From NCBI GenBank assembly GCA_964220215.1, contig CAXPTH010000018.1, positions 1-22,021 on the forward strand: DNA of 22,021 nt, written 5' to 3'. This DNA comes from Alteromonas sp. (GTDB taxonomy: Bacteria; Margulisbacteria; Marinamargulisbacteria; UBA6595). The position numbers were made by a program, and so were the translations under genes. Below are positions 16,138-22,021 of this stretch, piece after piece. The notes beneath the pieces were generated by a model, which was not told the DNA's origin, made no database searches, and worked only from the letters and a program-made list of their open reading frames with translations. Every line of letters starts with the position of its first letter. Within the stretch, counting starts at the first letter, position 1.

Positions 16138-16211
16138 TGGGGCGTAGCCAAGCGGCAAGGCATCGGGTTTTGGTCCCGTGATCGTTGGTTCGAATCCAGC
16201 CGCCCCAGCCA
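16138..16211 (+). tRNA. tRNA-Gln(TTG)
   Basis: Acceptor TGGGGCG/CGCCCCA, AGCCAAGCGGCAAGGCA D-arm, anticodon loop TT-TTG-GT, GGTTCGAATCC, encoded CCA. Confidence 0.97.
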
Positions 16212-16225
16212 TGTTTTTACTTTTC

Positions 16226-16515
16226 TAGATATCTCCTAGCCCTAAATTCCTAAAGCTCTAAAGCCCCCTAAATCCCCCTAAAGGGGGACTTTGATGCGAA
16301 GGTCAATGAAATTGCCCAGGCCCCTAAATCCCCTAAAGGGGACTTGGGTGTATTTGGATTGTTGAAATTACTTTATCTAAACTTGACCCAATGCTATGGT
16401 GTCGTCTAAACGTCACACCCAATTCCTTTTTATTGAGATTATCCGTATCACAAGTCCCCTTTAGGGGATTTAGGGGCCTGGGTATTAAGTGCTTAGAGAT
16501 ATTTAGGGGCCTGGG
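16226..16515. repeat. Left cluster of CnTAAATCnTAAAGnACTT palindromic (REP/BoxC/triplex-like) repeats
   Basis: Degenerate CCTAAA lead-in at 16235-16262, direct copies at 16263-16291 and 16315-16346, an inverted copy at 16451-16482 and a partial inverted copy at 16501-16515. Confidence 0.9.
16315..16482. mobile_element. 168-bp MITE/REPIN-like unit with perfect 32-bp terminal inverted repeats; interior resembles a DUF559 gene remnant
   Basis: CCCAGGCCCCTAAATCCCCTAAAGGGGACTTG (16315-16346) is the exact reverse complement of 16451-16482, enclosing 104 bp. A second copy of the unit begins at 21938 in the opposite orientation. Confidence 0.7.
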
Positions 16516-16618
16516 TGGATAGAATCATAGGTGCATACTGACCCCAGTTAAGAAGAAGTGACTGAAGCGGCTCTTTTTTTTCTTTGAGAAGTTTATTTTT
16601 GAATAGCTTAGCCATAGT

Positions 16619-17223
16619 TTATTTAGCAACCGCTACTTCATCAATCTGAGCCATAAACTCTGCTTTAGTGGGCAAATAAGTTTGATATTGGCTAGTAAAT
16701 ATCTGTTTATTGTCTTTAGGCAATGTGATTTCAACCAAGCTGTCTTTCTTGTCCTTAGAAAGCACAATCCCAAGAATTCTAAAATATAGGGATCTTTTAC
16801 TGCATCTTGCGGGTTGTTAATAAGCTGACCGTTTTCACTTAATGCTTTAACGCCTTCTTTATCTCGGCTCAAGCGTAAACGATCATAAAGGGCTGAATTG
16901 AATTGTCGGTTTAGTTCACGTAATGACCAATTGTTTTCGGTTGCTTCAATCTCATAAAAACATCGTTCATGTTCTGGTAACCGCATTAAAAAGACATAGT
17001 GGGACCAACTTAGTGTAAAAGATGTGGGCTTCAGGGTACTTGATTCCAATTCCGCAGACGGTGTTTGCGTTTTTCGATAAGTCAGATAAAACTTTCGCAT
17101 GGTTTCAATATTTCGAATCGAAAACCCTTTGCCAAATTCTTGTGTAAGCGCATCACTAAGTTGCTTTAAGGTTCCTTTTCCATATTTAGCATTCTCTTGT
17201 CCCTTTTGCTCATGTTCAACAAT
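16619..17223 (-). pseudogene. YhcG/DUF1016 PD-(D/E)XK nuclease family pseudogene (5' truncated, nuclease core deleted, frameshifted)
   Basis: From 17223: IVEHEQKGQENAKYGKGTLKQLSDALTQEFGKGFSIRNIETMRKFY...LSWSHY...FYEIE...WSLREL.RQ..S.LYDR...KDPYILEFLGL. A different frame then gives the family C-terminus GIVLSKDKKDSLVEITLPKDNKQIFTSQYQTYLPT...* (stop 16619-16621). In-frame TGA lies just upstream of 17223. Confidence 0.85.
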
Positions 17224-17343
17224 TCAAATTCAAAATTTTAAAGAGACCACCATGCGTAATATAGTTTCACTAAAGTATGAAGCCGAAACGGAGGCTTATG
17301 CCTATTTTTCATATGATAGATACCCCTACCAAGTATTGGCACA

Positions 17344-17556
17344 TCACACCCACTCCACGATTTCCTTGATCATAGGATGCATGTGCTTTTTTTGGGCCCA
17401 TTCATTGATTTCAAGGGCACTTGTAGTTTCTACAGTTTGAAAAAGTTTTACCCCTGCTAGATAGGAACCTTTTTTTTGCGGCTTGTCCTTAAAAAAAAGG
17501 AGGTAGTTATTCTGCAATAGAACAATATAAATAACCTGGTTCTCTGAGTTTTCCAT
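17344..17556 (-). CDS. Small hypothetical protein (70 aa)
   Basis: ATG start with weak AGGT upstream, same strand as its neighbours, globular-looking composition. No family recognised. Confidence 0.35.
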   Translation of the reverse strand: MENSENQVIYIVLLQNNYLLFFKDKPQKKGSYLAGVKLFQTVETTSALEINEWAQKKHMHPMIKEIVEWV

Positions 17557-17800
17557 CTCTACTTACCTGTGCCCTATCTCATATCGTGTATTAGATTGAT
17601 GTTTAATTTTTTTGTTACTCATATTTTGTATGCTCCGTTTACTGGTATTTGGCTTTATCTAAAATTTGGTAATAATCGGTGCTTTATGTTTTCAAAAACG
17701 GAGAGAATTACATGTATGATAAATATATCATCGCTAATTAAGAGTATAGCATTATATAGGAAGGATATGGAATCGGAAGGGTCTATACTCGCCCTACTTG

Positions 17801-19084
17801 CTATAGAGGTTTCGATCGATAACCACGTTGCTTTCTTCCCAAAAAGTTCTTAGATTTATTACTTTTTTTCTTTTTCTTAAATGCAAATCTTCGGTCCAAA
17901 CTAGACTCTGGCAATTCAAGCGCTGGAACAAAATTCTCTATGATCTGTCGGGGCAGTATCTGTTTAATAAGCCGTTCTATAGGGATTAACAATTCAAACT
18001 CCTCCGCACAGACTAATGAAATTGAGTTTCCCACAGCACCTGCTCGGCCTGTTCTGCCAATACGATGTACGTAATCTTCTGGTACGTTTGGCAAATCGAT
18101 GTTTACTACCTGTGGAAGCTGATTAATATCTAAGCCTCTTGCTGCAATATCTGTCGCCACCAAGATCGCAACGTGACCTTGCTTAAAGGCTGCCAATGCC
18201 TTTGTTCGTGCGCTTTGACTCTTATTACCATGAATGGCAACTGTACGGATGTTATTTTTTTGCAAATAACGGGTTAATTTATCGGCACCATGTTTCGTAC
18301 GGCAGAACACTAAGGCCTGTGTCCACTTATGTTTAGTGATAAGATGCTTAAGCAATTCGGGTTTTCTTTTTTTATCGACGGGATACACACTCTGTTCAAT
18401 AGCTTGAACAGTTGAATTTCGAGGTGTCACCGAAATTTCAATAGGGGCTTTTACCAGTCCTTGGGCAAGTCGTCGTATATCGTCTGAAAACGTGGCTGAA
18501 AACATAAGTGTCTGGCGTTGTTTAGGCAATAAGGATATTATTTTTCGAATATCTTTGATAAAACCCATATCTAACATGCAATCTGCTTCATCCAATACGA
18601 GCACTTCTAAGTTGGCAAACGTAATCGTTTTTTGCTGATACAGATCTAATAACCGTCCAGGAGTGGCTACTAATATATCTACACCTCTGGATACTTTTCT
18701 CTTCTGTGGATTAATATTCACACCACCAAATACAACCTCTATATTCAAAAACAAATGCTCAGCATACGATACAGCATTAGCCCCTACTTGAGCCGCTAGT
18801 TCACGTGTTGGTGTTAACACGAGCACTTTCACTTGCTTTTCTTGTGCACGAGCCCCCTTCGTAAGTCTATGCAAAATGGGCAACATAAATCCAGCGGTCT
18901 TCCCCGTACCTGTTTGGGCAGCTCCCATAACATCATTTCCTGCTAAAATTGGGGGGATAGCTTTGGCTTGAATAGGGGTAGGGCATACATAACCTTGGGC
19001 AATAACCGCTTCAAGAATTGCGTCATCTAAACCAAAGTCTGTAAAGTTCACTGGGGCATCATTCTGTAGTGTCTCGTTCATCAT
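17801..19084 (-). CDS. rhlE: DEAD-box RNA helicase, RhlE-like
   Basis: Q motif PTPIQ, AQTGTGKT, PTRELA, GG, TPGRL, DEAD, SAT, HGNKSQ..R..AL..FK, ARGLD, HRIGRTGRAG and a basic tail. GAGGT SD at 19095-19099 supports ATG 19084 over the track TTG 19117. Confidence 0.92.
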   Translation of the reverse strand: MMNETLQNDAPVNFTDFGLDDAILEAVIAQGYVCPTPIQAKAIPPILAGNDVMGAAQTGTGKTAGFMLPILHRLTKGARAQEKQVKVLVLTPTRELAAQVGANAVSYAEHLFLNIEVVFGGVNINPQKRKVSRGVDILVATPGRLLDLYQQKTITFANLEVLVLDEADCMLDMGFIKDIRKIISLLPKQRQTLMFSATFSDDIRRLAQGLVKAPIEISVTPRNSTVQAIEQSVYPVDKKRKPELLKHLITKHKWTQALVFCRTKHGADKLTRYLQKNNIRTVAIHGNKSQSARTKALAAFKQGHVAILVATDIAARGLDINQLPQVVNIDLPNVPEDYVHRIGRTGRAGAVGNSISLVCAEEFELLIPIERLIKQILPRQIIENFVPALELPESSLDRRFAFKKKKKSNKSKNFLGRKQRGYRSKPL

Positions 19085-19109
19085 TTTATCAATAACCTCT
19101 TCATTGCAT

Positions 19110-21023
19110 TTACTCAATTAAAATATTGCCATCTGGCGTCTCTTTTTTTAGACGAATCAGTATGGCCTTTCCAGCCTCTTCTCGATCATCAAAATGGATG
19201 GTTTTAGATTTTAAAATTTGATAATCTTCATGTCCTTTTCCAGCAATAACAACAACATCGTTGTCTTTCGCTTTATCAATAATAAACGCGATTGCCTCTT
19301 TTCTTTTATGTATTAATTTGTATTCTCTAAAATCGGGGTTAACGCCATCTAAAATATTTCTCATAATACCCTGATTATCTTCACCTCGAGGGTTATCGTC
19401 CGTAATTACCATTAAATCAGCTATTTCACAGGCAATCTTACCCATTTTAGGCCGTTTGCCTCGGTCTCTGTCGCCGCCACACCCAAATAAGACTAAAAGT
19501 CTCCCTTTACGTTTGTCAGCAATTTTTTTAACGGTGCTCAATACATTTTTTAAGGCATCTGGGGTATGAGCATAATCCACAAGCACCATGTACAGTTGGC
19601 CTTTTTCTACACGTTCTAGCCTGCCGCTTGGTGCTTTACACGACGATAGGGTAGTTTCTATGATTTTTTCAGGGACATTCATATGCCTGAGTGCACATGC
19701 CGCTGCTTTAATATTCAAAAGATTATACTCACCTAATAATAATGTTGAAAAATAGATGGGTTCTTTTTTGAAACTTTCTGGATAAATTTTATATCCATCT
19801 CCTTCATGCATAAAACTCAATTTGGTTTTTTGATAGTTTTCAAATGTTTTGTGATAGTCTAAATGATCCTGTGTAATATTGGTAAGCAATTTAATATTAA
19901 AATCAATGCCCAAAACACGCAATTGATCGATGCCCTCGGACGTTACTTCCATAATAAAATGTGTCCCGCCTTTATCTAGGTGAAGCCGCATTAACCTTAA
20001 TGTTTCTATGGACTCTGGTGTCGACAGGTCTTTATTGCCTGAATTTAGAGTCCCTAATACAAATGGGTTGTTTCCTGCTGCTTTTAGCACTTCTCCTATT
20101 AAGTAAGTAACAGTTGTTTTTCCGTTTGTCCCAGTCACACCAATAACACAGAGTTCTTTAGAGGGGTTCCCATAGTGGTTGTGTGCATAGTTAGCCAGTT
20201 CTGTGGGATTCATTGTCTTTATCAATTCAGATTCTTTTTTGCAACTTTCCAGCGACAACCCCTCAATATCAAGTGCTGACTCAATAGATTTTTTATAATA
20301 TAGGTCTAAGTCTTCTGCTGTTGAATAGGCTGTTTTCATACCAGGAAATTCAAACATCAGTGAGGTCTTTTGCATGAATTTCATAAGATGCCCAAATACA
20401 CGATTCACCCATTCACGATCTGCCTTTGTACAAAGCCCATCTAGTTCCAATAAATTTAGAGGCGAGTGTGTAACTACAAAATGGCTTGGGTCATGCGTTG
20501 CAATAAGGCCAACTAGAAACTCCATTTCTGGCTCGGCTTGAAAATCAGGTCGACACGTTTTTATAGAGGGGCTATAAAAACAACGATTTAAATCAACCCC
20601 ATTCTTTTTTATTCTCGTCGGCATAAAGTGTTCTTCACCTGTGCCTAAAAAACAATCCGGATTTAACAACGGGATTACGATGATTCGGTTTTTCATCTCA
20701 GAAGACGATTTCCCTCTTAAAAATTGTATTAAAAGTTTCCAAAGTGTGTATAAAGGTGCTATTTCATCGGGATGAATCCCCCCCAACAGCAAAACGCTTT
20801 TGAGTGAGGGTGAGTCCTCATGTGGCTCAAACACATAATACAGCAGTGGATTCCCATACTCTGAATAGGCATACCTTCCTTCTGCGTTACGATGGTGACA
20901 GGCTTTCAAAGCCAATTGATCAAGATCATGCTTGGTTGCCTTCAAGTTTAACCCTAGTTTTTTAAATTGATCGGCAACTTCACTTAAATAATCCTCAATA
21001 TTTTTCTTATTTTTTTCGGGCAT
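19110..21023 (-). CDS. murE: Fusion: M14 zinc carboxypeptidase (MpaA-like) + compact MurE (UDP-MurNAc-dipeptide:meso-DAP ligase)
   Basis: N-terminal GGIHPDE, IPLLNPD, NGVDLNR, AEPE, THSP, FEFPG. C-terminal YGNPS..L..IGVTGTNGKTT, MEVTS, TNITQDHLDYH, GRLE, VDYAHTPDAL, FGCGGDRD..KRP.MG, DNPR, AGKGHEDYQ, FDDRE. GGAGG SD at 21032-21036 supports ATG 21023. Confidence 0.85.
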   Translation of the reverse strand: MPEKNKKNIEDYLSEVADQFKKLGLNLKATKHDLDQLALKACHHRNAEGRYAYSEYGNPLLYYVFEPHEDSPSLKSVLLLGGIHPDEIAPLYTLWKLLIQFLRGKSSSEMKNRIIVIPLLNPDCFLGTGEEHFMPTRIKKNGVDLNRCFYSPSIKTCRPDFQAEPEMEFLVGLIATHDPSHFVVTHSPLNLLELDGLCTKADREWVNRVFGHLMKFMQKTSLMFEFPGMKTAYSTAEDLDLYYKKSIESALDIEGLSLESCKKESELIKTMNPTELANYAHNHYGNPSKELCVIGVTGTNGKTTVTYLIGEVLKAAGNNPFVLGTLNSGNKDLSTPESIETLRLMRLHLDKGGTHFIMEVTSEGIDQLRVLGIDFNIKLLTNITQDHLDYHKTFENYQKTKLSFMHEGDGYKIYPESFKKEPIYFSTLLLGEYNLLNIKAAACALRHMNVPEKIIETTLSSCKAPSGRLERVEKGQLYMVLVDYAHTPDALKNVLSTVKKIADKRKGRLLVLFGCGGDRDRGKRPKMGKIACEIADLMVITDDNPRGEDNQGIMRNILDGVNPDFREYKLIHKRKEAIAFIIDKAKDNDVVVIAGKGHEDYQILKSKTIHFDDREEAGKAILIRLKKETPDGNILIE

Positions 21024-21255
21024 AATTCTTGCCTCCACTATGTTTTTGGGTATTGGTTTCTATTTTTATTGCTGTCTTACTTGTATCTTGAAACACTTCA
21101 TAGAACTCTGGAATACTAGGGCCACGCGTGGATGCCTCTGGAACAGCCTTATAGGGATGTGTCTCTGATAGCACATGTATATGGTTTGTCTCTCCAAAAA
21201 CGGGAGCAAGCATAGAGGCAATGGAAAGTGATATTATTAAGTTTATAGTTCTCAT
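21007..21255 (-). CDS. Small hypothetical exported protein (82 aa)
   Basis: GGAGGT SD, signal-peptide-like MRTINLIISLSIASMLAPVFG, and a 17-nt overlap with the start of the peptidase-MurE gene. Confidence 0.6.
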   Translation of the reverse strand: MRTINLIISLSIASMLAPVFGETNHIHVLSETHPYKAVPEASTRGPSIPEFYEVFQDTSKTAIKIETNTQKHSGGKNYARKK

Positions 21256-21366
21256 GCCACACCTCCAAGGAACACATGTTGTTATATTTTTGGAGGTAAA
21301 AAAATGTACTAGCTAGGGCACACGAGGACAGTTTGTATCTCTTTGAATACTTAAATTATAGATTTA

Positions 21367-21395
21367 ATTTTACTTCATATTCATGAATCAGTCAA
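21367..21395 (-). promoter_or_regulatory. Sigma70-type promoter for the 82-aa ORF / peptidase-MurE / helicase operon
   Basis: Minus strand TTGACT (21395-21390), 17-nt spacer, TAAAAT (21372-21367). The spacer contains the palindrome ATTCATGAAT (21379-21388). Confidence 0.6.
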
Positions 21396-21589
21396 ATTTC
21401 AGGCTAAACTAACTGCAGCACTCAGTTTGTCACTCCCCATTCAATAATTTCTAAACAGGTTACAGGGATACGCATATACTTCAATGTGGTAAATACGACT
21501 TCTATTAGGTTGCTTGTTTTTAGGAGGTTTTCTTTAATAGTTTTCTTAGTTATTGGTGCTCCTTTTTTATGTTAAATTTATGCTTTTCA

Positions 21590-21808
21590 TCATATAAGAA
21601 ATATTGAAAAATACGTATTGACAAGTTGGCTAGTTTTGCTGCTGGCCGATGGTTTTCTGGGCATAAAATTGAGTTTGCCCTCTAATATCAACTTGCGAAG
21701 GGATTCAACCTCAATCGGATCATAAATGCGATAGTTACTGATAGGGTGTCGTTTAGTTATAGTGTCCCATCGTCTTAAAGTTGCTGGATTTTTTCTAATT
21801 TTATAGAT
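21590..21808 (-). pseudogene. MerR-type helix-turn-helix remnant
   Basis: Startless frame reads IYKIRKNPATLRRWDTITKRHPISNYRIYDPIEVESLRKLILEG..., matching the MerR-like P.TLRRWD...RHP.(N)YR.Y pattern. Its 5' end runs into the repeat cluster. Confidence 0.6.
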
Positions 21809-22021
21809 ATCACCTAGGCCTAAATCCCTAAAGCCCCCTAAATCCCCCTAAAGCTCTAAAGCCCCTAAACCCCTAAATTCCTAAGGCCCCCTAAATCCCC
21901 CTAAAGGGGGACTTTGATGCGAAGGTCAATGAAATTGCCCAGGCCCCCTAAATCCCCCTAAAGGGGGACATTGATACGGATAATCTAAATAAAAAGGAAT
22001 TGGGTGTGACGTTTAGACAAC
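21804..22021. repeat. Right cluster of the same repeat family, with an expanded CnTAAA tandem lead-in; runs off the window
   Basis: 21886-21947 is identical to 16263-16324 (62 bp). 21938-22021 is a near-identical reverse complement of about 16402-16482. About 10 degenerate CnTAA(A/G) units lie at 21819-21905. Confidence 0.9.

Follow-up and report, generated by a model that had tools for sequence, protein, structure and literature searches.

Why would a single polypeptide carry both an enzyme predicted to cut a peptidoglycan bond and an enzyme that makes the same bond? This question is raised by a gene lying near one end of a 22,021-nucleotide stretch of Margulisbacteria DNA, hereafter the window, which is the entire contig CAXPTH010000018.1 (C18) of a 1.19 Mb genome, 82% complete. 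The gene (19110..21023, minus strand) encodes a protein of 637 amino acids (aa), made of an M14 zinc carboxypeptidase domain, a helical linker and domains 2 and 3 of the ligase MurE; the low hydrophobicity of its N-terminus suggests that it has no signal peptide. Both halves are known folds. The reading frame runs from 21023 to 19110 without any internal stop across its 637 codons, and the motifs named in an earlier, sequence-only reading of the locus are found where it placed them: GGIHPDE at residues 81–87, NPD at 121, DLNR at 144, EPE at 164, THSP at 185, FEFPG at 224, GTNGKTT at 298 and DNPR at 543.

The M14–MurE fusion is real. A single gap-free contig covers the domain junction, as well as position 20396, the site of a deletion detailed below, in 8/8 sequencing runs examined. 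Runs X1 and X4 may both come from the source sample, and the numbers of X6 and X7 were identical, so that five independent data sets remain. The gene is also present, in the same deleted form and with the junction spanned, on two Joint Genome Institute (JGI) contigs, L010 and L011. This rules out that either the junction or the deletion arose by misassembly. The suspicion of the sequence-only reading that the two halves could have been joined by accident has also to be abandoned, since the fusion is conserved. A search with residues 1–270 among proteins of 350–1115 aa gave 22 matches, 21 of them fused to MurE, with 47–87% identity and mostly 660–666 aa long; one match, P0004, stops early at 436 aa. 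The search with the ligase half added P0285, which brings the total to 22 other fused clusters. The linker length is near-constant across the fusions, and the close homologues carry the name Candidatus Marinamargulisbacteria, to which the host probably belongs as well. Plasmid, phage and viral collections gave ordinary MurE of less than 40% identity or nothing, the ESM Atlas gave generic M14 and MurE clusters only, and the Foldseek match lists were filled by Mur ligases, which made them uninformative on the peptidase.

The M14 domain covers approximately residues 11–257 (20253..20993, minus strand), as judged from Pfam, alignment and a model match to the MpaA structure 5HXD. The Pfam Peptidase_M14 match itself (residues 54–161) reaches 26.5 bits for a cut-off of 21.6. 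Alignment locates the zinc ligands H84, E87 and H186, the residues R137, N146 and R147, and the catalytic E225, whose roles we assume by analogy with carboxypeptidase A. All are invariant in 22/22 aligned rows, except R147, which is nearly so. The model of P0002, an intact member of the family (predicted local distance difference test score, pLDDT, 90.2), aligns with M14 structures over residues 11–287 with Z scores of 16–20, in agreement with the M14 fold initially proposed from the motifs. The M14 core shows a mean pairwise identity of 71% among intact fusions, compared with 42% for the first 55 residues and 75–81% for the ligase; this conservation indicates purifying selection on the core.

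The relationship to MpaA, described as an enzyme cutting the gamma-D-Glu-meso-diaminopimelate (meso-DAP) bond in excerpts of PMC4600125 and PMC6403190, is less direct. Only two sequence matches of the peptidase half were obtained in the PDB, both weak and both MpaA (4AXV, E 0.00085; 5HXD, E 0.02), and a profile search adds carboxypeptidases A2 and A4 at E-values like those of MpaA. The P0002 model superimposes on 5HXD with a Z score of 19.5 and a root-mean-square deviation of 3.5 over 208 aligned residues, and their 27% identity is the highest among the M14 rows. In a FastTree analysis, 13 fusions form one branch (support 100) inside an unnamed secreted-type group, which stands apart (99) from, and sister to, 30 comparison proteins mostly named MpaA in databases; this midpoint-rooted tree of 60 chosen rows includes no experimentally characterized MpaA and no outgroup. 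By sequence, the peptidase thus looks derived from an uncharacterized clade with signal peptides. It appears at best MpaA-like in its action, MpaA being its nearest characterized relative. Distant matches on L018, L019 and L022 (28–30% identity over about 100 aa) were dropped, as they belong to a different M14 group. As a separate observation, these loci hold an M14/AstE-like gene in a conserved cluster with apparent poly-gamma-glutamate synthesis genes, as read from the reading frames, and so form another pairing of M14 and a Mur-type ligase. In P0059 (688 aa), a Mur-ligase part of FolC-like type is joined to an SH3 domain and to an M14 domain that is MpaA-like; this is a single cluster and may be a read-through artefact.

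The peptidase of the window differs from its homologues in one conserved segment. An in-frame deletion at 20396..20397 (minus strand), documented by alignment, model and 8/8 runs, removes 29 residues between V209 and F210 that are kept in all 21 aligned homologues; the segment between EWVNRV and FGH had indeed been noticed as short. P0002, which has the 29 residues, is otherwise 98% identical to the window protein. The deletion cuts off the end of one helix and takes out a strand together with a conserved Tyr and the W-S preceding F-G; the lost segment is 70% conserved, like the rest of the M14 core. By carboxypeptidase A numbering, we take the lost segment to be the lid Tyr and the wall of the S1' pocket. 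The W-S-F-G pocket motif is present in 22/22 other fusions, and as G/W-S-x-G in the stand-alone relatives; the predicted substrate-pocket loop (Tyr ... S-x-G), complete in these 22 fusions, is missing in the window allele. In the model of the window protein, the pLDDT falls below 50 at residues 206–217, the next helix is lost, and the Z score to 5HXD is 16.5 over 191 residues, down from that of intact P0002. Since the missing residues include the predicted substrate-pocket loop, the window peptidase is likely crippled, and the protein probably works only as an accessory ligase. Compared with P0002, the window protein differs at 9/255 peptidase and 3/382 ligase-side residues (p 0.017, unpolarized). 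The deletion is real and widespread, being found in all 8 sequencing runs and in both JGI contigs; these runs were picked by their likeness to the window, so that its presence in all of them reflects spread and not frequency. The editing or salvage role proposed earlier for the window's own gene is not supported for a deletion allele with a probably impaired peptidase, and such ideas apply to the intact family members.

In the ligase half (19140..20156, minus strand), domains 2 and 3 of MurE are present in their short form, the Margulisbacteria type. Pfam places Mur_ligase_M at residues 296–406 and Mur_ligase_C at residues 467–597, the model matches the MurE structures 4C13 (Z 38.4) and 1E8C (Z 38.0), and the cut-offs of both MurE hidden Markov models are exceeded (NF001126, 384.7 versus 373 bits; TIGR01085, 376.4 versus 257.3 bits). 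The helical linker (20157..20252, about residues 258–289, from the model) includes M271 at 20213. The identification of the MurE part was thus right, and overlooked the absence of domain 1: there is no Pfam match to the N-terminal Mur_ligase domain, nor any remnant of the short domain 1 of the resident copies. Domain 1 is the part of MurE that contains the uridine site. All of the 19 positions checked for ATP, Mg and DAP binding are invariant in 21/21 fusions. They include K302, T303, E359, H387 and K401 (P-loop, Mg-binding Glu and His, carbamylation Lys), the P-loop motif GTNGKTT lying at 20112..20132 (residues 298–304, minus strand), and the meso-DAP residues D543, N544, R546, R519 and E599. 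The DNPR motif (19386..19397, residues 543–546, minus strand) matches the meso-DAP motif of the excerpted PMC3829189, and the assignment of the ligase to the meso-DAP type is borne out by the residues kept. Compared with MurE of known structure (1E8C, 4C13, 2WTZ), the fusion differs by the loss of domain 1, by a domain 2 shortened as in Margulisbacteria, by its position outside the division and cell wall (dcw) cluster and alongside a housekeeping copy, by the attached hydrolase, and by two acceptor-site motifs.

These motifs hold the only fixed differences between the 21 fusions and the resident MurEs (31 loci, one without a usable frame, hence 30 sequences). Three columns are concerned: Thr is replaced by Ser at 334, Ser by Thr at 361 and His by Glu at 363, two of the three changes being conservative. 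LSTP (20016..20027, residues 333–336, minus strand) has S334 where 30/30 resident MurEs have Thr in LTTP, and EVTSE (19935..19949, residues 359–363, minus strand) has T361 and E363 instead of the Ser and His of EVSSH; STP and EVTSE are present in 21/21 fusions. The three columns align with T195, S222 and H224 of the Mycobacterium tuberculosis enzyme; two of these residues, T195 and S222, appear in a list of ten contacts with UDP-N-acetylmuramoyl (UDP-MurNAc)-dipeptide in excerpts of PMC5312000 and PMC3133487.

These features are not restricted to the fusions. Among the best 120 matches to the ligase half, 99 stand-alone proteins (P0286–P0384; 366–472 aa, 59–73% identity) were found besides the fusions, some of them named Cellvibrionaceae, Methylococcaceae, Magnetovibrio or Ca. 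Electrothrix (Gamma- and Alphaproteobacteria, cable bacteria). On reading, their N-termini show no recognizable domain 1, and STP and VTSE occur together in 93/100 new rows. In a FastTree analysis, a single branch (99) within the short Margulisbacteria MurEs unites fusions and stand-alone proteins; stand-alone lineages branch first, and several stand-alone proteins nest among the fusions. This tree is quick and midpoint-rooted, its rows were selected for their likeness to the fusion, and some stand-alone proteins may be miscalled fragments. The ligase belongs to a wider, apparently undescribed family of headless MurE proteins, marked at sequence level by the LSTP/EVTSE signature, which the sequence-only reading had not mentioned. 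The loss of domain 1 and the signature are therefore ruled out as consequences of the fusion, both being shared by the 99 stand-alone relatives, whose lineages branch earlier. A direct duplication of the host's own murE is unlikely too, with 42% identity versus 59% to other members of the class. The in-frame Met at 20213 had been considered as an ancestral separate start, and three stand-alone relatives do start at the equivalent of M271; however, they nest among the fusions in the tree and look like secondary losses.

The lack of domain 1 has precedents within the phylum. Seven relatives (G070, G072, G074, G075, G076, G077 and G079; 63–100% complete) yielded a fully headless MurE and no other match at E 1e-30, at L070:6027-7070, L071:5521-6537, L072:3858-4877, L073:4955-5974, L074:1130-2215, L076:5341-6360 and L077:5300-6481. 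These sole copies begin at the strand before the P-loop and keep EVSSH, TTP and DNPR; the gene directly precedes murF in G072, and lies mostly outside the dcw cluster in the other six. Domain 1 thus seems dispensable for the normal reaction in Margulisbacteria, and its absence was rejected as a proof of a non-UDP acceptor. Other MurE arrangements were met in the same survey. In G054 and G056, frames of about 740 aa (L078:450-2681 and L079:5065-7284), with DNSR instead of DNPR and followed directly by a mraY-like gene, are probably MurE fused to a MurF-like part. In G000, a 226-aa MurF-like remnant (L033:797-1477, on C25) follows the housekeeping murE, and C23 has a longer MurF-like gene around 16300–17640. 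No MurE match at E 1e-30 was obtained in G046, a genome of the host's genus (89% complete), probably because of an assembly gap.

The fusion gene is accessory. It was found in three of the 146 Margulisbacteria genomes (G000, G007 and G008, from three different families), in 0/72 near-complete ones, and had no match in the two further members of the host's genus (genomes 89% and 77% complete). Each of the three carriers also possesses, amid cell-wall genes, an ordinary murE whose domain 1 is short; this answers the earlier question of a second canonical copy: there is a separate housekeeping one. As already stated in the sequence-only reading, the gene lies outside a dcw cluster in an accessory block. 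This block (16240..22021) has a low guanine–cytosine (GC) content of 36–43% per kb, versus 47% for the genome, and 38% for the gene itself; a tRNA-Gln gene (16138..16211, plus strand) stands at its edge, and GC-rich dispersed repeats at 16240–16516 and 21819–22021 border it. The restricted distribution, the additional housekeeping murE, the low-GC block at tRNA-Gln and the dispersed repeat together indicate that the gene has probably been moved horizontally.

What could the intact fusion do? The protein is predicted to reside in the cytoplasm; its ligase is equipped for ATP and meso-DAP, and its carboxypeptidase resembles MpaA most. If both sites acted without discrimination on UDP-MurNAc-tripeptide, the result would be a futile cycle; one site therefore needs a different substrate. 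The peptidase would release meso-DAP from gamma-D-Glu-meso-DAP peptides of turnover or scavenged origin, and the ligase would attach the freed meso-DAP to new UDP-MurNAc-dipeptide. The intact protein can thus be tentatively viewed, with a plausibility still short of conviction, as a cytoplasmic two-step substitute for Mpl that frees and re-ligates meso-DAP, the window allele keeping only the ligase. The peptidase substrate, the ligase acceptor, the coupling of the two sites and this allele's loss of peptidase are here what we infer. No mpl gene above cut-off was found in 3/3 carrier genomes. Mpl (TIGR01081) shares the Mur-ligase fold and the same proposed end, the re-use of stem peptides; in contrast to the fusion, which would recover DAP only, it ligates the whole tripeptide to UDP-MurNAc, and the fusion scores 28.2 bits for a cut-off of 388.7. 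As for its history, a short Margulisbacteria-type MurE may have been the origin of a mobile family of headless proteins, in which one branch would have taken up a secreted-type M14 gene minus its signal peptide; since then, the peptidase has probably been lost or damaged several times.

Several observations weigh against this Mpl-like proposal. The likeness of the peptidase to MpaA (NF007897; 4AXV, 5HXD) involves the M14 fold, the zinc ligands, the catalytic Glu, the lack of signal peptide and the best match to a characterized sequence. However, the score with NF007897 is only 37.8 bits for the window protein and 36.1 bits for P0002, versus a cut-off of 157, the fusions group within the unnamed secreted-type clade, a ligase is attached, and the window allele lacks the pocket loop; the earlier label "MpaA-like" thus stands for the nearest characterized relative and fails as a family assignment. 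In the structural comparison, the Z score of procarboxypeptidase B (20.4, at 13% identity) is level with that of MpaA. The nearest stand-alone relatives of the peptidase (290–350 aa) have a hydrophobic N-terminus in 13/14 cases checked, according to a crude hydrophobicity proxy with a threshold of 1.9, the values being at most 1.72 in 22 fusions and −0.03 in the window protein. These relatives look secreted, so that their substrate may be a sugar-linked tripeptide rather than a free peptide. A supply of free tripeptide is not evident either, since AmpG was not found in 5/5 genomes (77–89% complete) and an AmpD-type amidase is present in only one of the three carriers, G008 (same range of completeness). 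Among the neighboring genes read or scanned around the fusions, no cell-wall recycling gene was found. Nor is a shortage of DAP obvious, as the hosts have dapA and lysA, and dapF in 4/5 genomes (not found in G000). In addition, the housekeeping MurE would be equally able to use freed DAP, which leaves the fusion unexplained. Lastly, the window allele retains its zinc ligands and catalytic Glu, and other deleted sister alleles bear the ligase changes D350N and G522D; the whole gene may therefore be drifting.

A different explanation, which we consider unlikely though worth stating, is proofreading or exchange at the stem peptide's position 3. The peptidase would strip a wrong third residue, such as L-Lys, ornithine, LL-DAP or lanthionine, from UDP-MurNAc-tripeptide, and the ligase would then add meso-DAP, like a tRNA synthetase with its editing domain. 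The intact fusion would thus be a Mur ligase with built-in proofreading, the fused branch of a horizontally spread headless family with its own acceptor-site signature. Both sites indeed address the same bond, and the peptidase has lost its signal peptide and stands in the chain where domain 1 would be. Its secreted-type relatives may act on sugar-linked tripeptide. This is also said of the DL-carboxypeptidase Csd4 (4WCK), which reportedly cuts the gamma-D-Glu-meso-DAP bond, is exported and acts on the sacculus; it has the M14 fold (Z 16.1 to the intact model), with 20% identity, lower than MpaA. The failure to find genes for tripeptide import or release also fits precursor editing. Such editing exists at position 1, where the abstracts of PMC12280929 and bioRxiv 10.1101/2021.12.07.471703 describe PgeF (YfiH), a cytoplasmic hydrolase acting on stem-peptide precursors. 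PgeF is a protein separate from its ligase, and no relation to the fusion in sequence was found, nor was one looked for. However, a proofreading peptidase must discriminate against meso-DAP, otherwise ATP is burnt in a futile cycle, whereas the W-S-F-G motif (22/22 fusions) resembles the G-S-L-G of MpaA-like relatives (102/109) and gives no hint of a reversed specificity. Its presence in just 3/146 genomes and its repeated loss are also unlike a fidelity factor.

The signature itself suggests that the headless LSTP/EVTSE family could use another acceptor, either a gamma-D-Glu peptide, free or linked to lipid, or a metabolite unrelated to the wall, with the M14 domain as the matching processing or turnover enzyme. 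The sole three fixed columns include the T195 and S222 equivalents, contacts of UDP-MurNAc-dipeptide in the excerpted PMC5312000, the signature recurs in 93/100 further relatives, and six of the ten listed contacts fall in the missing domain 1. MurT likewise has no domain 1, acts on lipid II and works with a hydrolase, GatD, that supplies its nucleophile (PMC6113224); this system nevertheless consists of two chains, its hydrolase is a glutaminase and not an M14 enzyme, its acceptor is lipid II, and the fusion scores 30 versus 800 bits. We regard such a change of acceptor as rather improbable. Thr/Ser swaps, which are conservative, make up two of the three changes, and the position of the His is variable in ordinary MurE (Ile in 8F5D and L068). 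The equivalents of R230 and E198 are retained (E in most rows), and seven relatives have headless MurE as their sole copy.

It is slightly less likely again that the two halves are uncoupled, an accessory mobile MurE having captured a neighboring peptidase gene, with the halves working independently or the peptidase as a dispensable passenger. The ligase family is mostly stand-alone, with the stand-alone lineages branching first. At least three stand-alone groups nest among the fusions, and P0289 and P0307 retain pieces resembling the peptidase's end. P0004 ends early, and the window allele is deleted yet widespread. A mere passenger, however, would not keep its core and catalytic residues in proteins only about 50% identical to the window's, nor is a near-constant linker length expected of it, and no close stand-alone copy of the fusion's peptidase was found on a long contig. 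An assembly or binning artefact, to which the lower GC content of the block and its position at the contig end between dispersed repeats could point, is practically negligible, given the gap-free contigs in 8/8 runs, the 22 other fused clusters and contig L011, which ties the block to the same core genes as in the window.

The surroundings of the gene give few functional clues. A Shine-Dalgarno sequence GGAGG (21032..21036, minus strand) lies 8 nt upstream of the ATG, as proposed in the sequence-only reading. The promoter proposed with it finds no support beyond a match to the consensus: the scan gave 20 sites versus 12.9 ± 3.3 in shuffles, the best-scoring minus-strand upstream site being about 340 nt away. 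RNA runs contained 5–7% of words. The neighbors, described as decayed, are only partly so. Downstream, an intact RhlE-type DEAD-box helicase gene of 438 aa (17801..19117, minus strand) overlaps the stop codon of the fusion. An RhlE-type helicase also lies downstream of the fusion in L012 (L012:2375-3721, 69% identity); this is the only recurring neighbor, at one independent locus (L012) of 7, and no conserved cell-wall gene neighborhood was found. The other DEAD-box gene of the host, on C21, is 41% identical to the helicase of the window. Decay does concern a DUF1016 N-terminal domain gene, which is in pieces at 16633–17230, where a 155-aa frame covers positions 72–137 of the 137 Pfam positions. 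The bordering repeat is a GC-rich palindrome built on CCCCTAAAT, with copies on 14/29 contigs. On L010 (L010:433-6615), the low-GC block extends past the end of the window with genes that have no Pfam match; two similar frames of 301 and 314 aa each adjoin a short membrane-like frame.

No description of an M14–MurE fusion or of a headless MurE family was found in the titles and abstract starts of the literature searched, with subscription journals largely outside, and a synthetase and a hydrolase of the same peptidoglycan bond in one chain were not found in this literature either. The intact and naturally deleted alleles, 98% identical, provide a ready pair for probing the coupling of the two sites. 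If position-3 editing were true, precursor proofreading would extend beyond PgeF, and inside a ligase; if DAP salvage were true, the fusion would be a new route around Mpl. Independently of both, a wide accessory family of headless MurE proteins with a fixed signature comes out of this analysis as a by-product, and the Margulisbacteria whose sole MurE lacks the UDP-binding domain challenge the three-domain picture of Mur ligases.

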